From an uncultured delta proteobacterium (GTDB lineage Bacteria; Desulfobacterota; Binatia; Binatales; Binataceae): DNA of 64,000 nucleotides. Shown one piece after another: positions 13,195 to 59,774 of the stretch. The position numbers were made by a program, and so were the translations under genes. The stretch covers positions 384,001 to 448,000 of the forward strand of contig CAWEEQ010000004.1 in NCBI GenBank assembly GCA_963808235.1, given 5' to 3'. Numbering within the stretch: the stretch's first letter is position 1; every line of letters begins with the position of its first letter. The notes below the pieces were generated by a model that saw only the letters and a list, made by a program, of their open reading frames with translations, searched no databases and was not told where the DNA came from.

Positions 13195-14874
13195 TTGGTG
13201 CATGGAGAGAAAGACCGGCCTCTGACAAGTATTGCGCTGTTCGCGAGTGCGGCAGTCGCCACAGTGTTCGCAGTCGGGCTGTTCGCGGTAGATAAGAGAC
13301 CGCGCGCGCATCCTTATAGGGTGGGCAGCTTCGTCACGGCACATGCCGTCGCCGAGCGATGGAAGTCGGCGCCGCCGCCGCCCGAGCGCAGTCACGAACA
13401 GCGCGCGGTCGCGATCGCCAAGCTCGCGTCTCAACCCACCGCCGCTGCCTCGCCGCATCCCAGGAACAGGAAAGCAGATGACGCGACGCCGGTTGTCACG
13501 GTTCCGGATCCTCCGGACGAAATTGCGACGACCACCGAGTCAGCCGGCATCTGGAGTGACCAGGGAAGTCCGGCCGGTACCGGCAACGGCAACACGAACG
13601 GCAACGCTTTTATTACGATGGCATCAACCGGAGGGGTTTCACTTCCATTGACGTCGCCAACCGGGACGTCGCCAACCGGCGCGTCTTCGCAAGCTTCGAG
13701 TACAACCCCGGAATCGACGGGCACGGGCGTCAACGCTGCTGCGAGTCCAGGCCCGGCCGCCATTTCGGGGAAGATAGAACACCGCGATGCGACACAGTCG
13801 CATTTCGGATTTGTGCTGCTGGCTGGTGGGCAGGGCGGCGGGAAATTAGCGCTCCCGAGTGCGCAACTCTTTGACCCGATGACGACCGCGTTTGCACCAT
13901 CGACGCCGATGAAAGTGCCGCGCACAGATCACACGGCGACGGTTTTGCAGAGCGGAAAAATATTTGTTGCGGGCGGCGACGACGCTTTGGGCCGCGCGCT
14001 GTCGTCCGCTGAACTTTTCGATCCCGTGAGCGGAGCGTTCTCGCTGGTGGGATCGAAGATGAGCACGGCCCGCGCCGAACATTCGGCGACGCTCATTTCC
14101 GGATGCAATTGCCCTGCGGACGGACAAGTGCTGATCGCAGGCGGTATCGCGAAGAAGCAGGGAGCGTCGACCGCAAGCGCGGAGCTGTACGATCCGGTAA
14201 CCAGCAAGTTTACGCCGACCGGTTCGATGAAGGCTGCTCGTGCGATGCATACGGCGACGCTCATCTCGAGCGGTCCGCTGGCAGGAGAAATACTGATCGC
14301 CGGCGGTATCGACCAGAGTGGCGGTAATCTGTCGTCGGCGGAACTCTACGATCCGGCGTCCGGGCAGTTCACATCCACGGGTGCGATGAGCATTCCGCGC
14401 CAGGGTCATTCTGCGACGTGGCTCGATCCGGGCAATGTAACCGGCGCGCTCGCGGGCCAAGTGCTGATCGCCGGCGGTGGAGATATCCACGCGCCGAGCA
14501 ATGGCGCCGAGGTTTTCAATCCGCAGAATGGAACCTTTGCGCGGGTCGGAGCTATGTCCGATGCGCGGATTTTTCAAGCGGCTGTGCTGCTCTGCAACGG
14601 CCAGGTGCTGGTCGCGGGCGGACAGAGCAGCGAAACAAAATTTCTGACCAGTGCGGAGTTGTTCAATCCGGCGACGGCTTCTTTTTCTCCTACCGGCAGC
14701 ATGACCAACGTCCACGTTGGCGCGAGCGCGACGCTGCTCGAAAGCGGCAGTGTGCTGGTCGCGGGCGGCAAATCGCAGCTCGCCGATCTTTACGATCCTG
14801 CAGTTGGAACTTTTTCAGCGACGGGCAAGATGGTTACCGATCTTGCCGAATCGACGGCGACGTTAATCCGTTAG
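13195..14874 (+). CDS. membrane-anchored Kelch/galactose-oxidase-type beta-propeller protein
   Basis: N-terminal hydrophobic helix, S/T/G linker, about 7 repeats of R..HTAT.L..G.VL.AGG...SAEL(F/Y)DP. Confidence 0.85.
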   Translation: MVHGEKDRPLTSIALFASAAVATVFAVGLFAVDKRPRAHPYRVGSFVTAHAVAERWKSAPPPPERSHEQRAVAIAKLASQPTAAASPHPRNRKADDATPVVTVPDPPDEIATTTESAGIWSDQGSPAGTGNGNTNGNAFITMASTGGVSLPLTSPTGTSPTGASSQASSTTPESTGTGVNAAASPGPAAISGKIEHRDATQSHFGFVLLAGGQGGGKLALPSAQLFDPMTTAFAPSTPMKVPRTDHTATVLQSGKIFVAGGDDALGRALSSAELFDPVSGAFSLVGSKMSTARAEHSATLISGCNCPADGQVLIAGGIAKKQGASTASAELYDPVTSKFTPTGSMKAARAMHTATLISSGPLAGEILIAGGIDQSGGNLSSAELYDPASGQFTSTGAMSIPRQGHSATWLDPGNVTGALAGQVLIAGGGDIHAPSNGAEVFNPQNGTFARVGAMSDARIFQAAVLLCNGQVLVAGGQSSETKFLTSAELFNPATASFSPTGSMTNVHVGASATLLESGSVLVAGGKSQLADLYDPAVGTFSATGKMVTDLAESTATLIR

Positions 14875-14904: not shown

Positions 14905-15426
14905 CTAATTCTTGAGCGCGGCGATCACGTCATTGACGATCGCGTCGGCCTTTGCGCGCATCTCGGCGTCGGTCGCGTCCTGAATCGGATGGGGCACGAA
15001 AACTCGCCGGACCTCCGGCAATCCCAACGCGTCGGCTTGGCTCTGCGCAGCGTCCACGAAAACGTCGGACGCGATCATCACCGCGGGCTTCTTATTGGTC
15101 TCGAACCAGATTGAGTCGTGCACACTGCACGTTGTGCACGACCCTCAATCGGCCAGCGCTTCGATAACGAAGTCGCTTTCCTCCGCGATGCGGCGGCGCA
15201 GATCGTCGGGCGCCGGTTTGGTGAAAGTTGGTTTACGATAACGCTTGATTTCGACGCCGGGCAGGCGGTCCTGCAGATGTTCGGCGAGCCGATCGATCAG
15301 GACGTTGCCGCGCGGCTTGGCAATATCAAGAAGCGCGATGCGGCCGACGATTGTGTCAGAGCGTGCGGCAAGCGTTCGCCTGATCGGCACGCGCTCGTCG
15401 GTAGGATCGATGATCACCTGTTTCAT
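14905..15426 (-). CDS. UGSC-family selenoprotein (in-frame TGA 15145-15147 = Sec), 173 aa
   Basis: ALAD-TGA-GSCTTCSVHD; the two ORF fragments are in one frame; ATGA overlap with upstream gene; hairpin follows TGA. Confidence 0.85.
15113..15144 (-). promoter_or_regulatory. candidate SECIS hairpin of UGSC gene
   Basis: mRNA GGGUCGUGCACA-ACGUGCAG-UGUGCACGACUC immediately after UGA. Confidence 0.65.
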
Positions 15427-17027
15427 ATTGCCTCCTCGATTCGCCGGCTGACGCTGGACGAGCCCATCGGTCCCGATACCCATCCTGCGAACACGGCCGA
15501 GAATTTCCCGGCGTCGCCGCCTGCGACAATGATATTGATATTTTCCGGTTTGCGAAACTTCGGAATTTTCTGCGCGAGCTGCTCGGCCGTCGGATTGATC
15601 AGGCCGAGCGTTTTGAGCGTCAAGCCTTCGCCGCTGTCGTCGTCTTGAAGGAGGTCGCGAATCGGCCGCGCCGTCACGTGCTGGATTCGCGCGCGCACAT
15701 CCGCCTTGCTCCATTTGTCGCGCGCAACCGTGTCGGCATGCTCGGGCGAAATGATCAACAAAATCTCGCCGGAGCCGTGCTGCTTGGGATGCCAGCAAGC
15801 CTCCAGTCCCAGCCCGAGACTGCCGACCAGCGCCCGCGCCGTGCGTGAAGTCTGATCGGCAATCTGGCGCGAGCCCGCCTCGAGCCCGAACACGGTCACG
15901 ACGCTCTCCTCTTTCTTGAAGCCGCGCTCGACGTGCAGCGGTTCCCACGGACTGCGTTCCTCCCATTCGGCGAAGCAGGTCGTGAACTTGCCGATCGCGC
16001 CGAGCGTGGACCGCTCTATCTCGCCGGGCCGCGCGCCGCCGATGTTACGCAAGACGAGTTTCACTGCGCGGCCGATGGTCGCGTTGGATCGAGTGCCGTA
16101 ACCGAGCGCCATCATGCCCATGTTCATCGCGAGCCGATGACGAATCGGGCCGTTCACGACAATTACCGGAGTCGCGCCCCAAGTCGTTGCCATGATGCCG
16201 TGAATATTGAACTGATCGGTGCAGACCGCTTCCAGAGCCGCGATCACGACCGGCAGATACTCGGGCCTGCATCCGGCCATCACCGCGTTGACGGCGACTT
16301 TCTCCACCGTCACCGGTGCGAGATTTGGCGGCGCGATCGCAACCAACTCGCGAGGATCGCGCCGGGTGCCGGTCAACATCCACATGACGCGCTCGGGCGT
16401 TGGGGGAACGACGGGCAGTCCATCGGTCAGACCTCGCTCGAACATGAATTCGAAAACGTCTTCCGCGTCGCCAAGCTCGATTCGCCGCGCGGTGAGCTTG
16501 TCGCCGCGCGACTCCGCTTCGAGCCGCTCCGCAATCCCCGGCTCGACCGACTTGGAACCGCATCCGGGCCGCGACTCTGGATACGATTTCCAGTCGATTG
16601 ATGGCGAATCGACGCCGGACAAGCGCGCCAGTTCAGCGAACATCTCGCGCCAATCGTCGCGTCCGAAACCGACAAAGCGGCGCAGCTCAGCGCCGCGCGA
16701 ATCCGCGAGGATTATCGTCGGCACGGTATCGAGTTCGAATGCGAACGAAACCTTGAGCGCCGAGTCGTCGAGCATCGGCACCGTCAAACTGTGACGCTGG
16801 ACCAGCTTTGCGTTGCCTTCGGCGTCCTGGCCGATCGCCAGGACCCCCACCGACAAGCCGAAACTGCTATGCGCCGCTTCGATAAGCGGCATCGTGAGCC
16901 CGCAAGTCGGACAGTCTTCCTTGACGAAGCAGAGCAGCATCGGTCGCGCGGACGGAAACGCATGCGCAATTCCGCTCGAGTCGTGCAGCTCAAACGTCGG
17001 CAGAGAATTTGTGGACACGTCGGCCAT
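15423..17027 (-). CDS. thioredoxin-like (CPTC) domain fused to UGSC-partner domain
   Basis: FVKEDCPTC, VPTIIL, RPGCGS, then GLTDGLPVVPPT, NAVMAGC, NATIGRA. Confidence 0.8.
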   Translation of the reverse strand: MADVSTNSLPTFELHDSSGIAHAFPSARPMLLCFVKEDCPTCGLTMPLIEAAHSSFGLSVGVLAIGQDAEGNAKLVQRHSLTVPMLDDSALKVSFAFELDTVPTIILADSRGAELRRFVGFGRDDWREMFAELARLSGVDSPSIDWKSYPESRPGCGSKSVEPGIAERLEAESRGDKLTARRIELGDAEDVFEFMFERGLTDGLPVVPPTPERVMWMLTGTRRDPRELVAIAPPNLAPVTVEKVAVNAVMAGCRPEYLPVVIAALEAVCTDQFNIHGIMATTWGATPVIVVNGPIRHRLAMNMGMMALGYGTRSNATIGRAVKLVLRNIGGARPGEIERSTLGAIGKFTTCFAEWEERSPWEPLHVERGFKKEESVVTVFGLEAGSRQIADQTSRTARALVGSLGLGLEACWHPKQHGSGEILLIISPEHADTVARDKWSKADVRARIQHVTARPIRDLLQDDDSGEGLTLKTLGLINPTAEQLAQKIPKFRKPENINIIVAGGDAGKFSAVFAGWVSGPMGSSSVSRRIEEAI

Positions 17028-17051
17028 CGGTCATGTTACTCAGTCCTCCCG

Positions 17052-18302
17052 CTACTCAGTACCCGCGACAGGTTCAGGAAGCATCAGGAACCTATGCTGC
17101 TTTGGCGAATAGAATTCCACCGAAGCGCTGACGTTCGATTTCTCATCGATTCCGCCGGCGATCAACACTTGACCATCGGCGAGCAGGGTCGCGGTATTTT
17201 CGAGTCGCGCGATGGCGGTGCGTCCGGGGCTGAAAAACCGATTCGCTTCGGGTTGATAAAGGTCCGCATCGCGCATCCCGACCACGACGAAACCCTGCAT
17301 CTTCCATCCTCCCACTACCAGGACCTGCCCGTTGATGAGCATGGTCGCAGTCGGCAGGTAATGCGGGGCGCTCATGTCGCCGGTTCTGATGAAAGTGCCG
17401 GATTCAGGATCGTAAATTTCCGCGGTGTTAAGCGGCGTCAGTGAAGACAGGCTCGGATGCGCCCGCCCCATCAAGATTCTGCCGCTCTTGCCGCCAACGA
17501 TCAGCACGCGTCCATCGAGCAGCCGCACCGCAGCGCCGCCGACCCGGTCTAAATTCATGTGGGCGCGCATCGTTGCGAACTTTCCAGTGGCCGGATCAAA
17601 TAATTCAGCGGTGTCGTAGGAGATGTAACCGCCGGGCCTTCCGCCGCGGCCGCCGCCTGCGATCAACACTTTGCCGCTCAGCAGCGCCGTCGCGGTGTGC
17701 GCTATCCGAGGCTGATTTAAGTGCCCGACGCGTCGGAATGTGCCGGTGGCCGGATCGTAAATTTCAGCGGAGTCGAGCGTATGGGTTCCGTTGTCGCTGC
17801 CACCGACGACCAGCACGCGTCCGTCGCGAAGTAAGGTAGCGGTGTGACCTTCGCGCGGCACCGACATTGAGCCGGTGGCGGTGAAGGTGCCGGTGGAAGG
17901 ATTGTAAATCTCGGCGCTGGCGAGTTCCGAGCGAAAACCGATGTTGCGCGCGCCGCCGGTCAGTAGCACGCGTCCGTCTCGCAGCATGGTGATCGTGTGT
18001 CCCTGGCGCGGGACGGTCATGGGCCCGGTAGGCGTGAATTGATGCGAGACGGGATCGTACAGCTCTGCGCTCGAGAGGACGCCGCCGACCTTAGCCGTCG
18101 CGGTGCCTCCGCAGATCAGCACCCGTCCGTCAGCAAGCCGGATCGATGCGGCGTCGGCGCGCGGCGAAGTCATCGCGAGAGATTCGGCGCGCTGCGCTTC
18201 CGGATTCGCGTGGTAAACCGGGGCTTCGGCCACTGGAGCAGCCGAGCAGCCACATAGAGCGGCCGCGAGAATCAACAAAAAGACAATACCCCGGCGAAAC
18301 AT
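17052..18302 (-). CDS. Kelch-repeat lipoprotein
   Basis: lipobox LCGC; about 7 Kelch repeats (DGRVL..GG...AEIYDP). Confidence 0.85.
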   Translation of the reverse strand: MFRRGIVFLLILAAALCGCSAAPVAEAPVYHANPEAQRAESLAMTSPRADAASIRLADGRVLICGGTATAKVGGVLSSAELYDPVSHQFTPTGPMTVPRQGHTITMLRDGRVLLTGGARNIGFRSELASAEIYNPSTGTFTATGSMSVPREGHTATLLRDGRVLVVGGSDNGTHTLDSAEIYDPATGTFRRVGHLNQPRIAHTATALLSGKVLIAGGGRGGRPGGYISYDTAELFDPATGKFATMRAHMNLDRVGGAAVRLLDGRVLIVGGKSGRILMGRAHPSLSSLTPLNTAEIYDPESGTFIRTGDMSAPHYLPTATMLINGQVLVVGGWKMQGFVVVGMRDADLYQPEANRFFSPGRTAIARLENTATLLADGQVLIAGGIDEKSNVSASVEFYSPKQHRFLMLPEPVAGTE

Positions 18303-18305
18303 AGA

Positions 18306-18890
18306 TCACTCTGCGGGGACGCGAACGCCGCGCAGTATCGCATTCATCGTTGCGCGAATGAACATCGCGCCGGGCCACACGCCGCGGCGTCGCGGCGCGA
18401 CTGGCGATTCGCCGCCCCGGGTAAGAGCGCGCACGAAACCAAGCAACTCGTCCACACCGACTCGGGATGCGACCTCCTCGAGCGCGCGGAAACGGACGAT
18501 TCGATTGCGATCGATCACGAACGCGGCCGGAAAAGAGATCCCGCCATTTTCCCGCGCGTTGAGCAGTCCATACGATTTCACGACCTCGCGTCGAGTGTCG
18601 CCGAGCAGCGGGAACTTAATTCCCAGCTCACTACGCAGAGGTTCGGCGCGCGCGGCGTCGTCGACCGAGATGGCGGCCATGCTGGCTCCGGCAGCGCGGA
18701 AGTCGTCGAGTCGTGCCGAGTAATCCGCCAACTGGCGGAGGCAGAACGGTCACCAATGCCCGCGATAAAAAACGATGACGCCGAGACCGGTCGAGACCAG
18801 CTCGGAGAGCCGGCGAACCGCGCCGGTCGAGTCGGCAAGCTCAAACTCGGGAGCGGATTCGCCAACCGCTGGAATATGGCGTTCATCCAT
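18306..18890 (-). CDS. AhpC/TSA peroxiredoxin-like selenoprotein (in-frame TGA 18750-18752 = Sec, UxxC)
   Basis: VGESAPEFEL..., FYRGHW-TGA-PFCLRQL, AISVD, FPLLGD, PAAFVID in one frame. Confidence 0.85.
18714..18743 (-). promoter_or_regulatory. candidate SECIS hairpin of peroxiredoxin-like gene
   Basis: UCCGCC-AGUU-GGCGGA starts 11 nt after UGA; lower UGCC/GGCA stem. Confidence 0.65.
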
Positions 18891-19003
18891 GAGCATCACA
18901 ATAGCGTCCGCGCCCGCATTGCGAAAAGGCCATTTCGCTTGCACCGCAAGCGCCGGGCAGCCTAATCATTTCCGAACGCAAGACAATTCATCTGGAGGAA
19001 ACG

Positions 19004-19370
19004 ATGAAACCATTCGTCGTCAATCGCGGGATTCGTTGCACTGATAGCACTATGCGCGCCGGCTGCTCGCGCACAGGATCCGGCGAAGACTGATCCCGCG
19101 CACTTCAAGGTCGAGCTCGACAACGACCGCGTCCGCGTCCTTCATGTCACGGTTGCCCCGAACAGCAAAGTCGATCTGCACGACCTCGACGATGCGGTCG
19201 TAGTACCGCTCGCCGACTACGAATCGACCCTGAAGAAGGATGGCCAAGCCACCAAGGTGGAGCGCGTCACCGGGAAAGCGGCGTGGGTTCCCGCGGGTGG
19301 CCGCGAAATCGAGGTCGGCGCGAAGGGCGTCGATGCGCTATTGATCGAGATCAAGCACGCGCCGAAGTAG
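19004..19370 (+). CDS. secreted cupin-like protein, +1 frameshift near 19022
   Basis: GGAGGA RBS; MKPFVV/IAGFVALIALCAPAARA-QDPAKTDPAHFKVELDNDRVRVL...AAWVP...IEIK. Confidence 0.7.
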
Positions 19371-20295
19371 CGGCACTGTCGAGGAATATCGCACCTTCGC
19401 CGACGATCACGCATCGTCCGCCGATGCGGATTCCGAATGCGCCGCCGTCTTTGCGCACAACCTCGACGTGAATTTCGCTCGGCCGTCCCATCTCGACGCC
19501 CTGGTTGATCAGGAACGAAGCCTCGGGCGCGGGGTTGATTAACCCATACGTGGCGGCGTACGCGCCGAACGGAGCTGCAGCGCTTCCGGTGGCGGGGTCT
19601 TCGGCGATGCCGTCGTGCGGCGCGAACATCCGCGAGCGAACCGAGAACTCGCCCGACTGGTTCGCGACAAACATGTATATGAGAGGCGCCCACGCGCCCG
19701 GCTCGAACAGAGCCGCGATTGGAGCCGCGCTGGGAGTGCATTTCGCGAGCGCGTCCAAATTGCGCAGCGGGACAAAAACGAACGGAAAACCCGTCGAGAC
19801 AATTTGGATCGGAAGATCGTCGCGAATGTCCGCGGCAGTGATTCCCAGCGCCTTCGCGATGCGCCCACGATCGCGCCGCTTCGCGCCGAACTCCGCCTCG
19901 CGATGCGCCATCCACACGAACTCCGGCTTCGCGTCGGCGCCTTCGATCGACATCGTTACAGGTCCGATTCCGAGCTCCAGAGTCGCCTCGGCCACGACGC
20001 GCTCCGACCTGAGCGGTATCTGTCCGTGACTCGCGAGCACCCAGGTGGTGCCGACTGTCGGATGCCCGGCCATCGGAACTTCGCGGGCGGGCGTGAAAAT
20101 CCTCACCCGGCGCACGACGCCCGGCACCTCGGACGCGGTCACGAATGTCGACTCGCTGAAATTCATCTCATGCGCGAGCGATTGCATCTCGGCGTCGCTG
20201 AGTCCGGCCGCGTCGCTGAAGACCGCGAGCTGGTTGCCGCCGAACGGCCGCGAGGTGAAGACATCGACGAGTGTGAATTTTGCCTGGCGTTGCAT
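19351..20295 (-). CDS. PhzF family isomerase
   Basis: VDVFT..PFGGNQLAV, NFSESTF, AGHPTVG, EDPATGSA, QGVEMGRPS. Confidence 0.9.
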   Translation of the reverse strand: MQRQAKFTLVDVFTSRPFGGNQLAVFSDAAGLSDAEMQSLAHEMNFSESTFVTASEVPGVVRRVRIFTPAREVPMAGHPTVGTTWVLASHGQIPLRSERVVAEATLELGIGPVTMSIEGADAKPEFVWMAHREAEFGAKRRDRGRIAKALGITAADIRDDLPIQIVSTGFPFVFVPLRNLDALAKCTPSAAPIAALFEPGAWAPLIYMFVANQSGEFSVRSRMFAPHDGIAEDPATGSAAAPFGAYAATYGLINPAPEASFLINQGVEMGRPSEIHVEVVRKDGGAFGIRIGGRCVIVGEGAIFLDSAATSARA

Positions 20296-20402: not shown

Positions 20403-21638
20403 CTACTTGCCGACGATAAACACGCAGCTCGTGGTGCCGCTGCCGCCGATGTTCAGCATCGCAAACTTTTTCGCGTCGTCGACCTGGTAGTCGCCGGCGC
20501 TATTGGTTACCTGGCGATGGCAATCGAGCATCTGGCGCACTCCGGTCGCGCCGACCGGATGTCCGGCGCCGATCAGCCCGCCGCTCGGATTGATCGGCAG
20601 CTTGCCGCCGAGCTCGATTACGCCTTCCTCGACCGCCTTCCACGATTCGCCGGGCTTGGTGATTCCGAAGTGATCGATCGCCATGTATTCCGAAGTCGTG
20701 AAGCAGTCGTGCGTCTCGATTCCGGATAGCTCGGACGCCGACCCGATCTCGGCGCGCTTGAACGCGTCGACAATCGCCTGGCGCGTATGCGGGAGTACGT
20801 AAGTATTGTCCTTGCTCTCGGCAACCTTGGTCGCGAACTCGAGCGGCGCCGTATGATGCCCCCATCCGAGGATTCGTGGAATGTCGGCGAGCTTCTTGCC
20901 GTTGCGCTTGGCCCATGCGCTCGCAAATTTTTCCGAGGCGAGAAAGATCGCGACCGAGCCGTCGGTTACCTGCGAGCAATCGCTGACCTTGATCCGTCCG
21001 CCGATTATTCCATTGAACTTGCTCTCGCGCAGCGCGTGGCTCTCGCTCATGAACCAGTTGCGGGTCTGCGCGTTCGGATTGCGTTTCGCGTTCGAGTAGT
21101 TCACCGCCGAGATATGCGCGAGATGCTCATCCTTCAAGCCGTAGCGCTTGTCGTACTCGTCGCCGAGCCGGCCGAAAAGTTTCGGGAAGGGGAACTCGAT
21201 TCCCTTGGCCTCGCGCTCGTACCATGCCGCGGTGCCCAGATAATCGCCGCCGGTCGTTGAGTCCACGGTCTTCATCTGCTCGACGCCGACCACGCATGCG
21301 AGGTCGTAGCGAGCGGCTTCGATTTCCGCCGACGCCGCAATCAGCGCGATCGAGCCCGAGGCGCATGCGGCCTCATGCCGGCTGGTCGGAAGTCCCGAGA
21401 ACTCGGGATCGATCTCGATGAAGAACGCGCCGATATGGCCTTGCTTCGCGTAGAGCTCGGCGGCGAAGTTGCCGACGTGCGCGGTTTCGACTTCCTTCGG
21501 CTCGATACGCGTCGCTTCGAGCGCGCCCAGGGTCGCCTCGCGCATCATCGCGACGAAATGTTTGCCTTCTTTGGACCAGTTGCGGGCAAAGTCGGTCTGC
21601 GCTCCGCCCAGAATGTACACCGGCGCTGGCTTAGTCAT
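20403..21638 (-). CDS. thiolase (acetyl-CoA acetyltransferase, SCP2-thiolase type)
   Basis: EAACASG, ETHDCF, NPSGG..GHPVGATG. Confidence 0.9.
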   Translation of the reverse strand: MTKPAPVYILGGAQTDFARNWSKEGKHFVAMMREATLGALEATRIEPKEVETAHVGNFAAELYAKQGHIGAFFIEIDPEFSGLPTSRHEAACASGSIALIAASAEIEAARYDLACVVGVEQMKTVDSTTGGDYLGTAAWYEREAKGIEFPFPKLFGRLGDEYDKRYGLKDEHLAHISAVNYSNAKRNPNAQTRNWFMSESHALRESKFNGIIGGRIKVSDCSQVTDGSVAIFLASEKFASAWAKRNGKKLADIPRILGWGHHTAPLEFATKVAESKDNTYVLPHTRQAIVDAFKRAEIGSASELSGIETHDCFTTSEYMAIDHFGITKPGESWKAVEEGVIELGGKLPINPSGGLIGAGHPVGATGVRQMLDCHRQVTNSAGDYQVDDAKKFAMLNIGGSGTTSCVFIVGK

Positions 21639-42738: not shown

Positions 42739-42824
<86 letters not shown>

Positions 42825-42863
42825 CTATGATCTGTATGTATGATAATAAGATCGACGGGGAGA

Positions 42864-42939
42864 GCGGGAATAGCTCAGTTGGTAGAGCGCGAGCCTTCCA
42901 AGCTCGGGGTCGCGGGTTCGAGTCCCGTTTCCCGCTCCA
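42864..42939 (+). tRNA. tRNA-Gly(TCC)
   Basis: GCGGGAA acceptor, CTTCCAA loop, CCA end. Confidence 0.95.
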
Positions 42940-43012
42940 GATTTTTTTCGATGCGCGAGTTTCCGATCGCGAGGAGAGATGATTCGAGGGAATTGTTCCA
43001 ATGCGGACGGGC

Positions 43013-43085
<73 letters not shown>

Positions 43086-43153
43086 TTCCAGACTCTGTCG
43101 CACGCCGGAACGCCGGCATGGTTAGAATTACTTAGAACGCGGGGCATAGTACA

Positions 43154-43309
43154 ATGAGAGATCTGATTTCACTTTCATGCGACACCTGCAAGGCGCGCAA
43201 CTACACCACAACCAAGAACAAGAAAACGCAGACGGACAAGTTTTCGATCAAAAAGTTCTGCCCCAAATGCCGCTCGCATACAGTCCATCGCGAAGGCAAA
43301 ATTTCTTGA
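43154..43309 (+). CDS. rpmG: 50S ribosomal protein L33 (Zn-binding form)
   Basis: MRDLISLSCDTCKARNYTTTKNKK...KKFCPKCRSHTVHRE; not in ORF track. Confidence 0.95.
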   Translation: MRDLISLSCDTCKARNYTTTKNKKTQTDKFSIKKFCPKCRSHTVHREGKIS

Positions 43310-43345
43310 GCGGAAACGCGTTGCGACCGCGAAACTGTTATAAGC

Positions 43346-43422
43346 GGGTCAGTAGCTCCAATTGGCAGAGCATCGGACTCCAAATCCGAGGGTTCCAGGT
43401 TCGACCCCTGGCTGGCCCGCCA
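43346..43422 (+). tRNA. tRNA-Trp(CCA)
   Basis: TCGGA-CTCCAAA-TCCGA, CCA end. Confidence 0.95.
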
Positions 43423-46895: not shown

Positions 46896-51007
<4,112 letters not shown>

Positions 51008-51022
51008 GGAGTTATAAACGAG

Positions 51023-54000
51023 ATGGAAGATCTCTTTGGAATATTTGAGAAGCCCAAGAATCCACTGGCGTTCAACGCGATCCGCATTTCGATAGCGTCG
51101 CCGGAAATGATCCGCTCGTGGTCGCACGGCGAGGTCAAGAAGCCGGAGACGATCAACTACCGGACCTTCAAGCCGGAGCGCGACGGACTTTTCTGCGCGA
51201 AGATTTTCGGGCCGACCAAGGACTACGAATGCAATTGCGGCAAGTACAAACGCATGCGGCATCGCGGCGTGGTCTGCGAAAAGTGCGGAGTCGAAGTAAT
51301 CCAGTCGAAAGTGCGCCGCGAGCGGATGGGTCATATCGATCTGGCCGCGCCGGTCGCGCACATCTGGTTCCTGCGCTCGCTGCCCTCGCGTATCGGCACC
51401 CTGCTCGACATGACGCTGAAGGAACTCGAGAAGGTCCTCTACTTCGAGTGCTATGTCGTCACCGACGCCGGTGAGACGCCGCTCCAATACAAGGAACTCC
51501 TGACCGAGCGCAAATATCGCGAGAACCGCGAATTGTACGCCGACGGCTTCAAGGCCGAGATGGGTGCTGAAGCCGTCCGCTCACTGCTGGGACAGCTTGC
51601 ACTCGACAAGCTCGCCGAGGAACTTCGCGCCGAGATGAAGGCGACGGCGAGCGAGGCGCGGCGCAAGAAAGTTGCCAAGCGGCTGAAGGTCGTCAACGCA
51701 TTCCGCGACTCGGGCAACAAGCCCGAGTGGATGATCCTCACCATCCTTCCGGTGATTCCTCCCGACCTGCGGCCGCTGGTGCCACTCGACGGCGGGCGTT
51801 TCGCCACCTCCGATCTGAACGATCTCTATCGGCGCGTGATCAATCGCAACAACCGTTTGAAGCGGCTGATCGAACTGAACGCCCCGGACATCATTATCCG
51901 CAACGAAAAGCGGATGCTCCAGGAAGCCGTCGATGCGCTATTCGACAACGGGCGCCGCGGACGCGCGATCACTGGTCCTTCGAAGCGTCCGCTCAAGTCG
52001 CTCTCCGACATGCTCAAGGGCAAGTCGGGACGCTTCCGGCAGAACCTGCTCGGCAAGCGCGTCGACTACTCGGGCCGCTCGGTTATCGTGGTCGGCCCAG
52101 AGCTGCGCCTCCACCAGTGCGGCCTGCCGAAAAAGATGGCGCTCGAGCTGTTCAAGCCCTTCATCTACAACAAGCTCGAAGAAAAGGGTTACGTCACGAC
52201 TATCAAGAGCGCGAAAAAGATGGTCGAGAAAGAGGGCAAGGACGTTTGGGATATCCTCGATGAGGTTATCCGCGAGCATCCGGTGCTGCTCAACCGCGCG
52301 CCGACGTTGCATCGACTCGGCATCCAAGCGTTCGAGCCGGTGCTGATCGAGGGAAAAGCGATTCAGCTTCATCCACTGGTATGCGTCGCGTACAACGCCG
52401 ACTTCGACGGCGATCAGATGGCGGTCCACGTGCCGCTGTCGATCGAAGCGCAGGTCGAATCGCGCGCGCTCATGATGTCCACCAACAACATCCTGTCGCC
52501 GGCGTCAGGCAAGCCCGTGATCGTGCCGACTCAGGACATGGTGCTGGGACTCTATTACATGACGCGTGAGAAACCGCTGGCGCGTGGCGAGGGCAAGAAT
52601 TTCGCCAACGTCGAGGAAGTGCGAATCGCGTACGACCACGAGGAAATCGATCTGCACGCGAAGATCACGGTCCGGATGTCGCCGCTGCTGGCGACCGGAA
52701 TCGTGCCGGAGGCGGCAGAGACCAACGGCCGTCCGCGCGGCAAGGCCAAGGCGCGTGAAGCCGCGTCTGCTCACGCTGCGGCCCCGGCGCTCGAACGGGT
52801 TACGACTACCGTCGGCCGGGTGCTGCTCTACGAGATCGTTCCGCCCGAGGTTCCGTTCACCGAGCTCAACAAGACGATGAAGAAAAAGGAGCTCGGCAAC
52901 CTGATCGACATCGTCTATCGCCGCTCGGGCGACAAGGCGACGGTTATCTTCGCCGACCGGCTGAAGGATATCGGCTTTGAATTCGCGACCAAGGCGGGAA
53001 TCTCGATCTCTATTAAGGACATGACAATTCCGCCGCAGAAGGCGCATCTGCTCGAAGGCGCGCAGAAGCAGGTCAGCGAGATTCAGCAGCAGTACAACAA
53101 CGGCGTGATCACCGACGGCGAGCGCTACAACAAGGTCGTCGACATCTGGGCCGAAGTTCAGGATCAGATCGGCAGCGCCGTTATCAAGGGGCTGTCGACC
53201 CAGGTCTTCGGCAAGAACGACAAGGGCGAGACGATTACCGGCCCGTCGTTCAATCCGATCTTCATCATGGCCGACTCGGGCGCTCGAGGATCCGAGCAGC
53301 AGATTCGACAGCTGGCGGGACTCCGCGGCCTGATGGCGAAGCCGTCGGGAGAAATAATCGAGACTCCGATCACCGCGAACTTCCGCGAGGGGCTCACGGT
53401 GTTGCAGTACTTCATCTCGACTCACGGCGCGCGCAAGGGACTCGCCGACACCGCGCTCAAGACGGCAAACTCGGGCTACCTGACCCGCCGCCTGGTCGAC
53501 GTGGCGCAGGACTCGATCATCAGCGAAGACGATTGCGGCACGCTCGACGGAATCGAGATGGCGCCGCTGGTCGAAGGCGGCGAGATAATCGAAGGGCTCG
53601 GCGATCGCGTGCTCGGACGCGTCGCGCTCGAAGATATCCGCGACGCGTTCACCGGCGAAGTGCTGGTCCGCGCCAATGAGATGATCGACGAGGACAAGGT
53701 CAAGCGAATCGAAGATGCGGGCGTCGAGCGAATCAAGATTCGTTCGGTGCTCACCTGCCAGTCGCGCCAGGGCGTATGCGTCAAGTGCTACGGACGCGAT
53801 CTCGGCCGCGGGCATCTGGTGAATCTTGGCGAGTCGATCGGAATTATCGCCGCGCAGTCGATCGGAGAGCCGGGCACCCAGCTCACGATGCGTACCTTCC
53901 ATATCGGCGGCACCGCCAGCCGGCGCGCCGAGCAGACCACGCTCGAAGTCCGCAACGAAGGCGTGATCCGTCTCCATGCGGTCAACACCGTGAAAAGCCG

Positions 54001-55291
54001 CGACGGCAACCTGGTCGTCATGACTCGTCACGGCGAAGTCGTGATCGCAGCCCAGGTTACCGATGAAGGCGGCCGCGTGCGCGAGCGCGAACGCGAACGC
54101 TATCCGCTGGTCTACGGCGCCAAGCTCAAGAAGGCCGAGGGCGACAAGGTGAAGCCGGGCGAGCTGATCGCGGAATGGGATCCGTACACGACTCCGATCA
54201 TCACCGAAGTCGGCGGCACGATTAAGTACGGCGACATAATCGAAGGCAAGACGATGGAGGAGCGGGTCGACGAACGAACCGGCGCGCGCTCCAACGTGGT
54301 AGTCGAATTCAAGGACCTCGACGTGCGTCCGCGTATCTCGATCAAGGACGCGTCGGGCAAGACCGTAAAGCTGCCGAATTCGAACAACGTCGCGCGCTAC
54401 TTCCTGCCGGTCGGCGCCTACATCAACGTGCCCGAAGGCACCGCGGTGGAACCGGGCGACGTGATCGCGAAGATTCCGCGCGAGACGACCAAGACCAAGG
54501 ACATCACCGGCGGACTTCCTCGAGTCGCGGAACTGTTCGAAGCGCGCAAGCCAAAAGAGTTCGCGGTCATTTCCGAAATAGATGGGCAGGTATCATTCGG
54601 CAAAGACACCAAGGGCAAGCGCAAGGTCGAAGTGACGCCGGAAATCGGCGAGAAGCGCGAGTACCTGATTCCCAAGGGCAAGCATATCGCGGTCCACGAG
54701 GGCGATATCGTCAAGGCGGGCGAGCCGTTGATGGAAGGCTCGTCGAATCCGCATGACATCCTGACCATCCTCGGCGAGAAGGCGCTCGCGAAATACCTGG
54801 TCGACGAAATCCAGGAGATCTACCGGCTCCAGGGCGTGCGCATCAACGACAAGCATATCGAAGTGATCGTGCGGCAGATGCTGCGCCGGGTCCGAATCAA
54901 GGAAGTAGGCGACACCCCGTTCCTGGTCGGCGACCAGGTCGAGAAGTGGCGCTTCGACGAGGAGAACGGCCGCGTGCTGACTCGCGGCGGAGAGCCCGCG
55001 ATCGCGGAGCCACTGCTGCTCGGAATCACCAAGGCGTCGCTGTCGACGGAAAGTTTCATCTCGGCGGCCTCGTTCCAGGAGACCACGCGCGTGCTTACCG
55101 AGTCTGCGATCAACGGCAAGGTCGATCGCTTGGTCGGACTCAAGGAAAACGTGATCATGGGACGGCTGATTCCGGCCGGTACGGGGATGAACTCGTACAA
55201 CGCGATGGTAGTGAAGGTGGAAGGCACTTCGACCGAGGAAAACGTCGAAAAACCCGAGCTGGCGGCGGCTCCTGCACCGGGCGGAGATTGA
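51023..55291 (+). CDS. rpoC: RNA polymerase beta' subunit
   Basis: [11 protein letters not shown], Zn-finger. Confidence 0.99.
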
Positions 55292-55325
55292 CAGGAAGGG
55301 TCCCGTCCCATAAATACTTATATTT

Positions 55326-55361
55326 CCCCCAAGGGCATACGTGTCCTTGGGGGGTTTGTTT
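55326..55361 (+). terminator. intrinsic terminator after rpoC
   Basis: CCCCCAAGGGCAT/GTGTCCTTGGGGG stem followed by TTTGTTT. Confidence 0.7.
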
Positions 55362-55490
55362 GAACACCGCGTCTCCACCCGAGACAACCCGGCGAACCGG
55401 AGCGGCGCGAAGCGAGCGTCGTGGCTATGTTTAAGCCGTGAATGTTGAATTGGATACGCGATTCGAGGCGAAGCGAGAGACTTAAAGAAC

Positions 55491-55862
55491 GTGCCGACCA
55501 TAAACCAGTTGATCCGGCGAGCGCGCGTAAAGAAAACCTACAAGGTGAAAGCTCGCGCGCTCGAGGGCTCGCCGCAAAAGCGCGGCGTATGCACCCAGGT
55601 CAAGACCACGACCCCGAAGAAGCCCAACTCGGCGCTGCGCAAGGTCGCGCGCGTGCGGCTCTCCAACGGGATCGAGGTGAACACCTATATCCCCGGGGTC
55701 GGGCACAACCTGCAGGAGCATTCGGTGGTGCTGATTCGCGGCGGCCGCGTCCGCGATTTGCCCGGCGTCCGCTATCACGTGATTCGCGGCACGCTGGATT
55801 CCATAGGCGTACAGGAACGGCGCAAGGGCCGCTCCAAGTACGGGTCGAAAAAACCAAAGTAG
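55491..55862 (+). CDS. rpsL: 30S ribosomal protein S12
   Basis: [18 protein letters not shown]. Confidence 0.98.
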
Positions 55863-55868
55863 AGTTTT

Positions 55869-56339
55869 ATGTCGCGCAAAGGACAGATTCGCGTCCGCGA
55901 AGTTCCGGCGGACCCCAAGTATCACGACCAGACCGTCGCCAAGTTCATGAACATGGTGATGGAGCGGGGTAAGAAGTCGCTCGCCGAGCAGATCTTCTAC
56001 CACGCGCTCGACCTGGTCGCGACGCGCTCGAAGGAAGACGGGCTGGTGGTCTTCAAGCGCGCGCTCGACAACGTCCGCCCGGCGGTCGAGGTTCGCTCGC
56101 GCCGGGTCGGCGGCGCCAACTACCAGGTGCCGTCGGAAGTAAGGCCGGTCCGCCGCAATTCGCTTGCGATGCGATGGATGGTTGCGGCGGCGCGCGCACG
56201 CGGCGAGAAGTCGATGGAAGAACGGCTGGCGGCGGAGATACTCGACGCCGCGGCCAATCGTGGCGGCGGGGTCAAGAAGCGCGAAGATACTCATCGGATG
56301 GCGGATGCCAACAGGGCGTTCGCACACTATCGCTGGTAA
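55869..56339 (+). CDS. rpsG: 30S ribosomal protein S7
   Basis: [21 protein letters not shown]. Confidence 0.98.
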
Positions 56340-56356
56340 ATACCCGAGATTTTTAG

Positions 56357-58453
56357 ATGGCTCGTCAGACCCCAATAGAACGGGTGCGCAATATCGGCAT
56401 CATGGCCCATATCGATGCCGGTAAGACCACCACCACGGAGCGGGTGCTCTTCTACACCGGTATCAACTACAAGATCGGAGAGGTGCACGACGGCACTGCG
56501 ACGATGGACTGGATGGTGCAGGAGCAGGAGCGCGGAATCACGATCACGTCGGCGGCGACTACGTGTTTCTGGCGCGACAACCGCATCAATATTATCGATA
56601 CGCCGGGACACGTCGATTTCACCATCGAAGTCGAGCGCTCCCTGCGCGTGCTTGACGGGGCGGTCGCGGTCTTTTGCGCGGTCGGCGGCGTCGAGCCGCA
56701 GTCGGAGACCGTCTGGCGCCAGGCCGACAAGTACCGGGTCCCGCGGATTGCGTTCATCAACAAGATGGACCGCGTCGGCGCGGAATTCGAGCGCGTCGTG
56801 CAGGAGATGCGCGACAAGTTGAAGGCAACGCCGCTGCTGTTGCATCTGCCAATTGGCGCCGAAGAAAAATTCACTGGCCTTGTCGATCTGATCGAGCAGA
56901 AGGCGCTCATCTGGGACGAGGATCGTCTCGGCGCGAACTTCCGGGTCGAAGAGATTCCCGACAACCTCAAAGAGCAGGCGCACGGATATCGCGACAAGAT
57001 GATCGAGACGCTCGCCGATCACGACGAGCACATCATGGAGCTGTACCTTGAGGGCAAGCATCCGGACCCCGAAAAGATTCGCGCCGCGATTCGCGCCGCG
57101 ACGCTCAAGATCGCGATTACTCCGGTCCTCCTCGGCAGCGCGTTCCGCAATAAGGGCGTGCAGCCGATGCTCGACGCGGTGGTCGAGTATCTGCCCTCGC
57201 CGCTCGACTTGCCGCCGGTGGTTGGCAAGGTAGGCGACAAGACTGAAGAACGATGGCCGCGTGACGACGCTCCGTTCTCCGCGCTCGCGTTCAAGATAAT
57301 GAACGATCAGCACATGGGTACGCTGACCTTCGTGCGGGTATATTCGGGCACCCTGGAAAGCGGCTCGTCGCTGCTCAATTCGACTCGTGGCAAGCGCGAG
57401 CGAATCGGCCGGATGCTCAAGATGCACGCGAACAAGCGCGAAGACATCACCGAAGTCTACGCGGGCGACATCTGCGCGATCGGGCTTCGCGACACGACTA
57501 CGGGCGACACGCTCTGCGACCCGGCCCATCCGATCGTGCTCGAATCGATCGAATTTCCGGAGCCGGTCATCCAGATCGCAATCGAGCCCAAGACCAAGGC
57601 CGACCAGGAAAAACTCTCCGAGGCGCTCCAGAAGCTCGCCAAAGAGGATCCGTCTTTCCGGGTCAGTGTGAATAAGGAAACCGCGCAGACGCTTATCTCC
57701 GGGATGGGCGAGCTGCATCTCGAGATAATCGTCGATCGGATGCTGCGCGAATTTAAAGTCGACGCCAATATCGGCAAGCCGCAGGTCGCATACCGCGAGA
57801 CCGTCAAGCGGGCAGCGGAAGCCGAGGGCAAGCTGGTCCGGCAGAGCGGCGGTCACGGACAGTACGCTGTGGTCGAGCTTAGAATCGAGCCGCTCGCCAA
57901 GGGCCTAGGCTTCGAGTTCGAGGACGGCACCAAGGGCGGATCGATCTCGCGCAACTTTATTCCGGCAATCGAAGCCGGAGTCAAAGAGGCGATGGAGAAC
58001 GGAGTGCTCGCGGGCTATCCGATGGTCGACATCAAGGCCATCGTGATCGACGGCAAGGAACACGACGTCGACTCGTCGGAACTCGCATTCAAGATTGCGG
58101 GCTCGATGGCGTTCAAGGAAGCTTGCGAAAGAGCCGAGCCGATCCTGCTCGAACCGATCATGGAAGTCGAAGTCGTGACGCCGCAGGAGTTCATGGGCGA
58201 AGTGATCGGCGACTTGAGCGGACGGCGCGGCAAGATTCTCGACATGGAAAATCGCGCCGGCGCCCAGGTGATCGAGGCGCGGGTGCCGCTCGCGACGATG
58301 TTCGGTTACGCGACTCGGGTCCGTTCGATGACCCAGGGCCGCGCGACTTATACGATGCAGTTCGGCGCCTACGAACCGGTGCCGCGAAATATCCTCGAAG
58401 AATTGACAGCACACAACGGCGATGGCGACGACAAAAAGAAAAAGGCGTCGTAG
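56357..58453 (+). CDS. fusA: elongation factor G
   Basis: [17 protein letters not shown]. Confidence 0.98.
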
Positions 58454-58508
58454 TAGTTGCGCCGGCGCGCCTGAAGGACGGGCAAGGTCTCAACCGGAGG
58501 TTACTTAG

Positions 58509-59699
<1,191 letters not shown>

Positions 59700-59774
59700 G
59701 AGAGCGGGCAGTGTTTGTTTAATCGATCGGGTGATGGAGCGGAGCGCTTAGGAAAATCGGGCGCGGTATTTTAG

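Follow-up and report, generated by a model that had tools for sequence, protein, structure and literature searches.

Two selenoprotein genes in two separable pairs at a Binataceae locus, with UGSC and its partner protein as candidate subunits of one reductase

UGSC proteins have stood among the most abundant bacterial selenoprotein families of ocean and freshwater metagenomes since 2007–2008 (PMC1976440, PMC2398784, PMC13188914), and in the accessible text of these three papers their function is stated to be unknown; PMC1976440 names Hyphomonas neptunium as a cultivable carrier. A likely thioredoxin (Trx)-like fold was suggested in 2008, and the accessible part of the same paper describes a fusion, UGSC/Unknown_1, to a conserved unknown domain with a conserved Cys in a few aquatic organisms only (PMC2398784, Figure S1A). 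Close to the present subject are also the peroxiredoxin (Prx)-like thiol:disulfide oxidoreductase selenoproteins (PF00578, 'Prx-like 1'), in which UxxC (U, selenocysteine, Sec) replaces CxxC in an AhpC/TSA fold, and the glycine and proline reductases (Grd, Prd), whose need for a dithiol or thioredoxin-type reductant, together with the UxxCxxC of GrdB, is given in the accessible part of PMC13188914. Here we consider four head-to-tail genes that span 14905–18899 on the minus strand of a 64,000-nucleotide (nt) stretch of contig CAWEEQ010000004.1 from an uncultured member of the Binataceae (the whole stretch is called the window). They encode, in order, a Prx-like selenoprotein (gene 1), a Kelch lipoprotein (gene 2), a protein of a thioredoxin-fold domain joined to an unnamed domain of ~350 amino acids (aa), here domC (gene 3), and a UGSC selenoprotein (gene 4). 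We favour the view that the two Sec genes belong to two separable pairs, genes 3 and 4 (pair A) and genes 1 and 2 (pair B), and that the products of pair A are probably the subunits of one thiol/selenol-dependent reductase, in which UGSC is a distant free-standing relative of selenoprotein B.

A first-pass annotation of the window had put this combination forward as undescribed. We found no description of a Prx-like and a UGSC selenoprotein together in the accessible literature, and to that extent the claim stands; it overreaches because both selenoprotein families and the UGSC fusion to an unknown domain (2008) are already in print. What is new is the partner rule for UGSC and the link to selenoprotein B.

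The genome of the window comprises 4.59 Mb in 4 contigs and is 93% complete. An order-level survey covered 61 genomes, its own included, among which G027 and G028 are flagged unpublished, and 20 loci were fetched from 18 genomes of the same order for synteny. A pattern scan for domC, with one genome per species, gave at least 610 confirmed loci; all counts out of 80 below refer to the best 80 of these, 79 of which are non-Binatus loci and the remaining one the Binatus locus L022.

Selenocysteine decoding in genes 1 and 4

Genes 1 and 4 had each been proposed to carry one in-frame TGA at a redox position, and each has exactly one (Table 1). Gene 1 reads FYRGHW-TGA-PFCLRQL and then continues for 147 further in-frame residues; gene 4 reads EALAD-TGA-GSCTTCSVHD. 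A search for the Sec machinery in the same genome found all of its parts. The products of selA (570 bits), selB (372 bits) and selD (378 bits) score above their profile cut-offs, and ARAGORN places a tRNA-SeC with anticodon tca at C2:2375-2466. The selD gene contains one in-frame TGA, so that its product is itself a selenoprotein, and adjoins selB at G000:C4:3730297-3733447, ~3.3 Mb from the cluster in the window.

Counted at the codon aligned to the window's Sec site, TGA is present in 20 of 20 Prx loci and in 91 of 92 UGSC loci, the remaining locus having TAG. In relatives, conservation extends both upstream and downstream of the TGA. Across the order, the Prx-like gene has 22 strong matches (E ≤ 5.8e-48) in 22 of the 61 genomes, own included, each with one TGA, and UGSC has 44 matches with one TGA in all except one short fragment. 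The TAG-bearing locus (L071:1365-1433) lies on a contig of a Blastococcus sp. metagenome-assembled genome; the rest of its gene is intact and matches the UGSC profile with 236 bits, and the TAG could be due to assembly error, to pseudogene formation or to another cause. In the short, shallow contigs of X1–X4 there was no TGA change at either site among the rows listed, from which we conclude nothing.

A stem-loop had also been predicted after each TGA. For UGSC this is borne out by folding: the window RNA forms a 42-nt structure at 15109-15150 of −26.4 kcal/mol (z = −4.0), which none of 200 shuffles matched in stability. The post-TGA fold of the Prx-like gene, in contrast, is unexceptional in the window (z = +0.33; 118 of 200 shuffles as stable), and here the prediction holds by conservation and not by folding energy. 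Both hairpins resemble selenocysteine insertion sequences (SECIS-like). The 5-bp core stem of UGSC is paired in 100% of 380 cells from 76 distinct sequences (77 aligned, from many phyla), and the 6-bp stem of the Prx-like gene in 96.8% of 126 cells from 21 sequences. Covariation is slight in both, and the support comes from conservation. Within the UGSC hairpin the synonymous third positions at alignment columns 24, 27, 30 and 33 are the same in no fewer than 76 of the 77 sequences, and those just upstream of it (columns 12, 15 and 21) vary freely; the hairpin region also codes for C-T-[ST]-C-S-[VL]-H-D, so that protein and RNA constraint are confounded. Because the machinery is present, the TGA and the hairpins are conserved and the synonymous sites of the UGSC hairpin are frozen, we read both TGAs as Sec codons, and genes 1 and 4 as genuine selenoprotein genes, from their sequences.

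Standard annotation was expected to fragment these genes and does so. Both are split under translation table 11, and many public calls cut UGSC at the TGA, leaving fragments of ~95-114 aa or fusion proteins that terminate ...AD or ...GD before U. Among five full-length UGSC forms in the database, only P0278 and P0311 have Cys at the Sec site, and P0353 is diverged there and lacks the motif; P0275 shows W and P0273 G, probably because the TGA was translated with a different code or a variant was called. A protein-cluster search with the natural Cys form P0278 returned no usable match.

With its TGA read through, gene 4 belongs to the UGSC family as first proposed, with 156.3 bits for NCBIfam NF041046, 'UGSC family (seleno)protein', where the cut-off is 125, and 157.1 bits for Pfam PF24696, where it is 25. 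In its motif, TGA and downstream hairpin it is a regular member of the family ('UGSC-containing protein', Zhang and Gladyshev), and the protein itself is no different; what we add to the picture of the family is a near-obligate partner, domC, a flavodoxin-like model and an extended motif. The pattern D-U-G-[SAG]-C-[TI]-[ST]-C occurs in 76 of 76 UGSC loci, all with a stop codon at U, and the extended motif is D-U-G-S-C-T-[ST]-C-S-x-H-D. The AF2 model of the 173-aa protein (pLDDT 94.4) is a five-stranded alpha/beta/alpha sandwich in which U94 lies between a strand (86-92) and a helix (95-110). Its best matches are azoreductases dependent on flavin mononucleotide (FMN), FMN reductases and flavodoxins (E ~2e-5, TM ~0.5), and UGSC is accordingly modelled with a flavodoxin-like fold.

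Gene 3 with UGSC, and the separation of the two pairs

Gene 3 had been labelled a thioredoxin fusion. The label suits the N-terminal ~135 residues, which score 25.2 bits against Pfam AhpC-TSA, slightly under the cut-off of 26, and match PDB 2l5o, 'putative thioredoxin', with E = 3e-4; it passes over the bulk of the protein, the unnamed ~350-aa domC, which is the real conserved partner of UGSC. Of 80 loci, 70 have a recognisable thioredoxin domain, 69 of them with the CxxC. Two cysteines of domC are almost as constant, Cys89 (gene 3 residue 253) being kept in 78 of 80 loci and Cys187 (residue 351) in 76. As in reductases fused to a thioredoxin fold (TlpA/ResA-like), an N-terminal redoxin-like domain with CxxC precedes what would be the catalytic domain, an arrangement that suggests built-in re-reduction. 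Trx-MsrA/B fusions are reductases with a fused thioredoxin-fold module; in gene 3, unlike that type, catalysis would fall to an unnamed fold together with a selenoprotein encoded separately.

In 76 of the 80 loci the UGSC gene comes immediately after domC, downstream on the same strand; these loci come from Binatia, Gamma-, Alpha- and Betaproteobacteria, Dehalococcoidia/Chloroflexota, Acidobacteriota, Actinomycetota, Myxococcota and others. The gap between the two matches is 3-228 nt in 74 of these loci, and 689 and 1100 nt in the other two. Of the order's 61 genomes, 41 yield both UGSC and domC, G025 yields domC only, cut off by the end of its contig, and 19 yield neither. Leaving out the unpublished G027 and G028, the figures are 39 for UGSC and 40 for domC among 59 genomes. 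The two genes are adjacent in 40 of the 41 genomes. No further gene family accompanies them in more than 13 of the 80 loci.

Fusions occur in both orders. Among 30 domC relatives, chosen for odd length and hence not a random sample, 18 carry a Pfam match to UGSC: seven have a whole UGSC in front, five start just after the Sec site, five end exactly before U, and one has a partial C-terminal match (profile 2-75) that stops before the Sec site. These fusions resemble UGSC/Unknown_1, as far as the accessible part of PMC2398784 describes it; Unknown_1 may be domC, and it is described there as restricted, whereas the domC-UGSC pair occurs here in many phyla as separate adjacent genes. Since the two genes are adjacent, occur together, are fused in both orders and share no other steady neighbour, we conclude that Trx/domC and UGSC form a robust conserved functional unit.

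The nature of domC is less easily stated. It matches no family in Pfam or NCBIfam. Its AF2 model is confident (pLDDT 91.6, pTM 0.91), and Foldseek against pdb found nothing at E ≤ 0.001, the weak rows being Toblerone-fold cyclic amide hydrolases and class I fumarate hydratase. The best VIA-align match has Z 6.1, below the trusted level, and covers only residues 216-353, with chorismate-mutase/YjgF-like and capsid-like alpha+beta units. These weak matches establish neither a new fold nor a fold identity. Searches of PDB sequences with the domC and UGSC profiles gave nothing relevant, and a protein-cluster search with domC gave only unnamed or loosely named clusters. The whole 534-aa gene 3 query matches 5982 cluster representatives at E ≤ 0.001, the weaker of which may rest on the thioredoxin part alone, and 1383 at E ≤ 1e-30; a word-indexed protein collection holds at least 8000 candidates. 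Many of the relatives are free-standing proteins of ~350 aa. Extra free-standing domC genes follow UGSC in Dehalococcoidia (two in L049:5134-9020 and one in L098:6721-10454), and representatives of ~710-740 aa with two domC repeats also occur (P0149, P0170, P0187 and P0197). The domain may act as a dimer or hetero-oligomer. Self-cleavage of the pyruvoyl type at the invariant domC Cys, by analogy with GrdE/PrdA, was considered and set aside, as nothing supports it.

The first-pass annotation had instead joined all four proteins in one pathway, a selenium-dependent thiol relay running from Prx-like(U) through Trx(CPTC) to UGSC(U) and serving, or served by, the Kelch lipoprotein. The genes are as tightly packed as it described, with spacers of 3 nt between genes 1 and 2 and 24 nt between genes 2 and 3 and an ATGA overlap between genes 3 and 4. 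Their order, which it proposed to compare among relatives, is kept in 14 of the 18 relatives' genomes fetched, in six genera, and also in L022; such order and spacing fit a functional link and count against a division into pairs, though we rate the relay lower. A further point in its favour comes from an unrelated member of the Pseudomonadota (L039), the one of the 79 non-Binatus loci with a Prx-like(U) gene nearby, in which this TGA-bearing gene lies ~280 nt downstream of UGSC.

What stood of this proposal is the conserved order, within one family; the relay itself fared worse, because the cluster breaks into two pairs and every junction can be broken. Searches of G045 and G036 found Prx-Kelch but neither gene 3 nor UGSC anywhere; G036 has ~1.1 kb between its counterparts of the two Kelch genes that enclose the module in the window, which looks like a clean absence of the module. 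In G047 the two pairs are on different contigs, in G048 Prx is on a contig other than that of Kelch-gene 3-UGSC, and in G020 and G034 1.1-1.5 kb are inserted between Kelch and gene 3. Trx/domC-UGSC occurs without pair B at the G047 locus and in 22 other genomes of the order. A Prx orthologue is missing from 23 of the 41 UGSC-bearing genomes, and a search of another 150 genomes from the phylum brought up no close one at E ≤ 1e-25. A Kelch gene next to the module is absent from all 79 non-Binatus loci. The Kelch protein seems to be exported, unlike the other three, and order kept within one family can be inherited synteny. Thus, the juxtaposition of the four genes is a family-level trait, local to one bacterial family, and a relay through all four proteins, while possible, is not indicated; we regard it as unlikely. 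One further four-gene cluster, L109 (G033:C4:56000-63500), looks degraded or frameshifted, with split matches to UGSC, domC and Trx and two TGA in domC; either decay or assembly error would account for its state.

Selenoprotein B, the proposed chemistry and its rivals

The same genome encodes a separate PrdB-like selenoprotein (G000:C4:3805460-3806317; L122 1102-1962, minus strand) with the motif PA-U-PVC, which scores 173.6 bits against TIGR04483, under the cut-off of 300. Read by eye, this protein and UGSC share an order of elements: strand, U-x-x-C, helix ending G-[IK]-P, strand and 'R-x-V-F-V-x-[HF]-P'. Pairwise BLASTP between the two shows no similarity. When profiles are compared, hhalign of 39 UGSC against 21 PrdB-like sequences aligns 67-158 on 134-220, with U on U and C on C (E = 0.002, probability 13%); a local rerun gave a score of 31.7 and a probability of 29%, with a maximum of 22.8 in 100 column shuffles and 13.8 in a reversed control. 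In a lax NCBIfam scan of the 39 UGSC sequences, TIGR01917 is matched by 25 (best E 3.4e-5), GrdF by 22, TIGR01918 by nine and GrdH by seven, in a constant register (UGSC ~76-165 on profile ~333-418 of 431); the next family after these models is matched by two of 39. Selenoprotein-B models are the only recurrent secondary matches.

UGSC and selenoprotein B (GrdB, GrdF, GrdH, PrdB) both have UxxC(xxC) with a Sec that follows a beta-strand, and over ~90 residues around Sec they may be similar in register. They differ in that UGSC has 173 aa against ~240-435 aa, scores far under the family cut-offs, and is partnered by domC and not by a pyruvoyl proprotein (GrdE/PrdA), with no GrdA, GrdC or PrdC genes nearby; its carriers are largely aerobic soil and marine lineages. 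UGSC is thus outside the selenoprotein B family and its similarity is remote, and distant homology of the two Sec regions is likely but unproven on this sequence evidence. The accessible literature contained no UGSC-GrdB connection, and the titles and abstracts found for 'UxxCxxC' had nothing on UGSC. A PDB sequence search with the PrdB-like profile gave no relevant match and no solved GrdB or PrdB.

Some observations on the PrdB-like genes may be added here. They occur with one TGA in 53 of the 61 genomes of the order, often as 2-4 paralogues. Directly upstream of the one in this genome is a gene whose product is GST-like by eye. In G049 (C24:5190-7693, L167) a Trx-less domC has a PrdB-like(U) paralogue in divergent orientation ~150 nt away and is followed by a divergent UGSC(U); one domC here stands between two selenoprotein-B-like genes.

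On the reading we favour, gene 3, with its CxxC Trx-fold domain and domC, would be cytoplasmic and partnered with UGSC. Sec94 would act as the nucleophile that attacks a substrate held by domC, and Cys97 or Cys100 would resolve the intermediate to give a selenylsulfide, which the fused CxxC domain would re-reduce by returning electrons to it. Where the CxxC domain is missing, free thioredoxin could be the donor, or, in one relative with FeThRed_B (the catalytic domain of ferredoxin:thioredoxin reductase) N-terminal to domC, a ferredoxin-linked domain. If the analogy with selenoprotein B holds, the enzyme would cleave a bound small molecule reductively. Grd and Prd reductases depend on a dithiol or thioredoxin-type reductant. 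The physical complex, the electron path and the reductase chemistry are proposals drawn from sequences, models and this analogy. Neighbouring genes were considered as guides to the substrate and rejected: CoA-transferase III (13 of 80 loci), acyl-CoA dehydrogenase (12), short-chain dehydrogenase/reductase (10), enoyl-CoA hydratase (8) and thiolase (5) are too weakly represented and lineage-typical to indicate one.

Several results weigh against this reading. Four of the 80 loci have no UGSC in the flanks of domC, a profile search included, and in G007 the two genes are 95 kb apart. Some UGSC forms in fusions lack both Sec and Cys at U; the whole fused forms often have Cys, or no redox residue, there. 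The thioredoxin domain is not seen in 10 of 80 loci, so that the electron donor is not fixed. The selenoprotein-B scores are low, 13-20 bits against cut-offs of 65-800: relatives' UGSC reach 12.6-19.7 bits for TIGR01917 (cut-off 602.2) and 13.2 for TIGR01918 (cut-off 65.45), the window's own UGSC matches no selenoprotein-B model at E ≤ 5, none of the 39 sequences matches Pfam GRDB (PF07355), and the hhalign probabilities are only 13-29%. Some of the similarity could reflect the UxxC that both have and a common beta-alpha-beta arrangement, and the control by column shuffling is lenient. Finally, no relation of domC to GrdE/PrdA or any other family was detected, which limits the analogy to one subunit.

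A bolder form of the proposal makes UGSC and domC a widespread, mostly aerobic counterpart of the clostridial glycine/proline-reductase 'protein B', a two-subunit, Sec-dependent enzyme that would reductively cleave a small molecule held by a new fold (domC), be recycled by its built-in thioredoxin domain and, in some lineages where selA and selB adjoin, give the main reason for keeping Sec machinery; we consider this doubtful. For the function of UGSC the narrower proposal already has consequences. A near-constant partner defines a two-protein system to express, so that function becomes testable, and the partner, the fusions in both orders and the likeness to selenoprotein B together predict that electrons pass from CxxC to U/C and point to a type of chemistry for screening. 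Annotations should give genes 1 and 4 whole, as many public calls truncate UGSC, alone or fused to domC, at its TGA. Being local to one family, the four-gene 'operon' is of modest interest; the locus is an entry point to the question of UGSC function.

A serious rival for pair A, though in our estimate an improbable one, is a general antioxidant system that reduces disulfides or peroxides and lacks the substrate specificity of a selenoprotein-B-like reductase. Most bacterial UxxC selenoproteins are read as thiol oxidoreductases in the accessible text of PMC2398784 and PMC13188914, a redoxin domain is fused in gene 3 and a Prx-like gene adjoins. The carriers live in oxic habitats, soil metagenomes and the Global Ocean Sampling (GOS) surface waters of PMC2398784, in so far as its accessible part reports them. 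Twelve sequencing runs, all metagenomes and eleven labelled soil, share words with the window stretch, the best with 0.40 of the sampled words; there are no RNA runs among those listed. Against such a general role stand the fold of UGSC, which in the model is not that of thioredoxin and has flavodoxin-like FMN reductases and flavodoxins as its matches, the strict co-inheritance of a large, 350-aa partner with invariant motifs, which suggests substrate binding, and the fact that the sole recurrent remote sequence similarity is to selenoprotein B.

A role of pair A in selenium handling, for example in delivery or recycling for SelD, would fit the presence of selB and selA directly upstream of domC-UGSC in eight of the 80 loci (e.g. 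L034:3948-7338) and the great rarity of Cys forms of UGSC in the searches. That adjacency would be just as likely were UGSC simply the main selenoprotein there, and UGSC may indeed be the principal one of the genomes in which selA and selB adjoin the pair. In the present genome selD and selB are far from the cluster, and a Sec-requiring protein that supplies Sec would be circular; we give selenium handling very little weight. Weakest of all, and already contradicted, is the reading of the TGAs as real stops, sequencing errors or pseudogene lesions that leave mere gene fragments: for it speak the split under table 11, the TAG in L071 and the frameshifted-looking G033 locus, and against it the TGA that independent assemblies share at the very redox site (20 of 20 and 91 of 92 loci), the conserved flanks and hairpins, the complete Sec machinery and a UGSC score above the curated cut-off.

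The Prx-like–Kelch pair and the layout of the locus

Gene 1 was assigned from the outset to the UxxC AhpC/TSA-like proteins, and its domain score, well above the Pfam gathering cut-off of 26, its UxxC at the redox motif and its conserved TGA confirm this. It is under the cut-offs of all named peroxiredoxins in NCBIfam (AhpC, PrxQ/BCP, PrxU and 1-Cys Prx models), the best score being 50.1 against 211, with 32.3 against 270 for PrxU and 25.4 against 272 for AhpC. With the Prx-like 1 selenoproteins it shares the fold, UxxC for CxxC, the TGA and the hairpin; unlike them it has a C-terminal tail of ~45 aa and is strictly paired with a Kelch lipoprotein gene, and it is known here from one family only, the Binataceae. 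Of the 18 Binataceae loci fetched that contain Prx(U), 17 have the Kelch gene next after it, as has L022. Gene 2 is uninterrupted and encodes 416 aa, with Kelch_6 (115.9 bits) as well as Kelch_1 above the Pfam cut-off. Its signal sequence and lipobox were read by eye from the sequence (the MFRRGIVFLLILAAALCGC N-terminus), and no signal peptide was seen on reading the sequences of genes 1, 3 and 4. A radical copper oxidase (GlxA/galactose oxidase) was rejected for gene 2, which scores 88.5 bits against 800 for NF052501, through the repeats only. Pair B is a lineage-specific pair of a UxxC Prx-like selenoprotein of the thiol:disulfide-oxidoreductase type and a Kelch lipoprotein. Its role can be taken no further than a thiol:disulfide-type redox protein beside an exported beta-propeller.

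The features of the locus are listed in Table 1. Gene 1 may start at GTG 18899, ATG 18896 or ATG 18890, and the start ATG of UGSC shares bases with the stop of gene 3. A scan of the locus for promoters and terminators found sites no more frequent than in shuffles. From the spacing, co-transcription of all four genes in this genome is likely; pair B is probably co-transcribed with pair A here, yet pair A does not require it.

Table 1 Features of the four-gene locus, in window positions
Feature	Position	Strand	Detail
Gene 1, Prx-like AhpC/TSA-fold selenoprotein, W-U50-P-F-C53	18306..18899	-	Pfam AhpC-TSA 95.1 bits
Sec codon TGA of Prx-like gene	18750-18752	-	HW-U-PFC; TGA in 20/20 relatives' loci
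SECIS-like hairpin UCCGCC-AGUU-GGCGGA	18724..18739	-	begins 11 nt past Prx UGA
Gene 2, Kelch beta-propeller, lipoprotein-type N-terminus MFRRGIVFLLILAAALCGC	17052..18302	-	Kelch_1 130.8 bits
Gene 3, 534 aa, Trx-fold + domC	15423-17027	-	CPTC at residues 39-42
Gene 3 N-terminal thioredoxin-fold domain (TlpA/ResA-like)	16623..17027	-	C39-P-T-C42 at 16902-16913
domC, unnamed ~350-aa domain of gene 3	15426..16496	-	DGLPVVPPT, NAVMAGC, RxNATIGRA and TTCFAEWEE motifs
Gene 4, UGSC-family selenoprotein, D-U94-G-S-C97-T-T-C100	14905..15426	-	NF041046, PF24696
Sec codon TGA of UGSC	15145-15147	-	AD-U-GSCTTC; 91/92 loci TGA
SECIS-like hairpin CGUGC-AGUKU-GCAYG	15117..15131	-	begins 13 nt past UGSC UGA

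Outside the cluster, a second Kelch protein of 559 aa is encoded at 13195-14874 on the plus strand, convergent with the UGSC gene across a 30-nt gap. It shares ~38% identity with gene 2, its N-terminus is hydrophobic, and it contains a low-complexity linker rich in Pro, Thr and Ser; a convergent Kelch paralogue is present also in L022, L105, L106, L107, L109, L114, L119, L120 and L121. Upstream of the cluster, on the minus strand, are open reading frames (ORFs) of 314 aa (19351-20295, PhzF-like by eye) and 411 aa (20403-21638, thiolase-like by eye). Further along the window there is a tRNA cluster at 42739-43420, and long ORFs occupy ~47700-59700 on the plus strand, those of 1102 and 1422 aa being taken as rpoB and rpoC by size and place only. 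The selB GTPase model also matches two EF-G-/EF-Tu-like GTPases (C4:440390 and C4:442548), in what is a housekeeping context.

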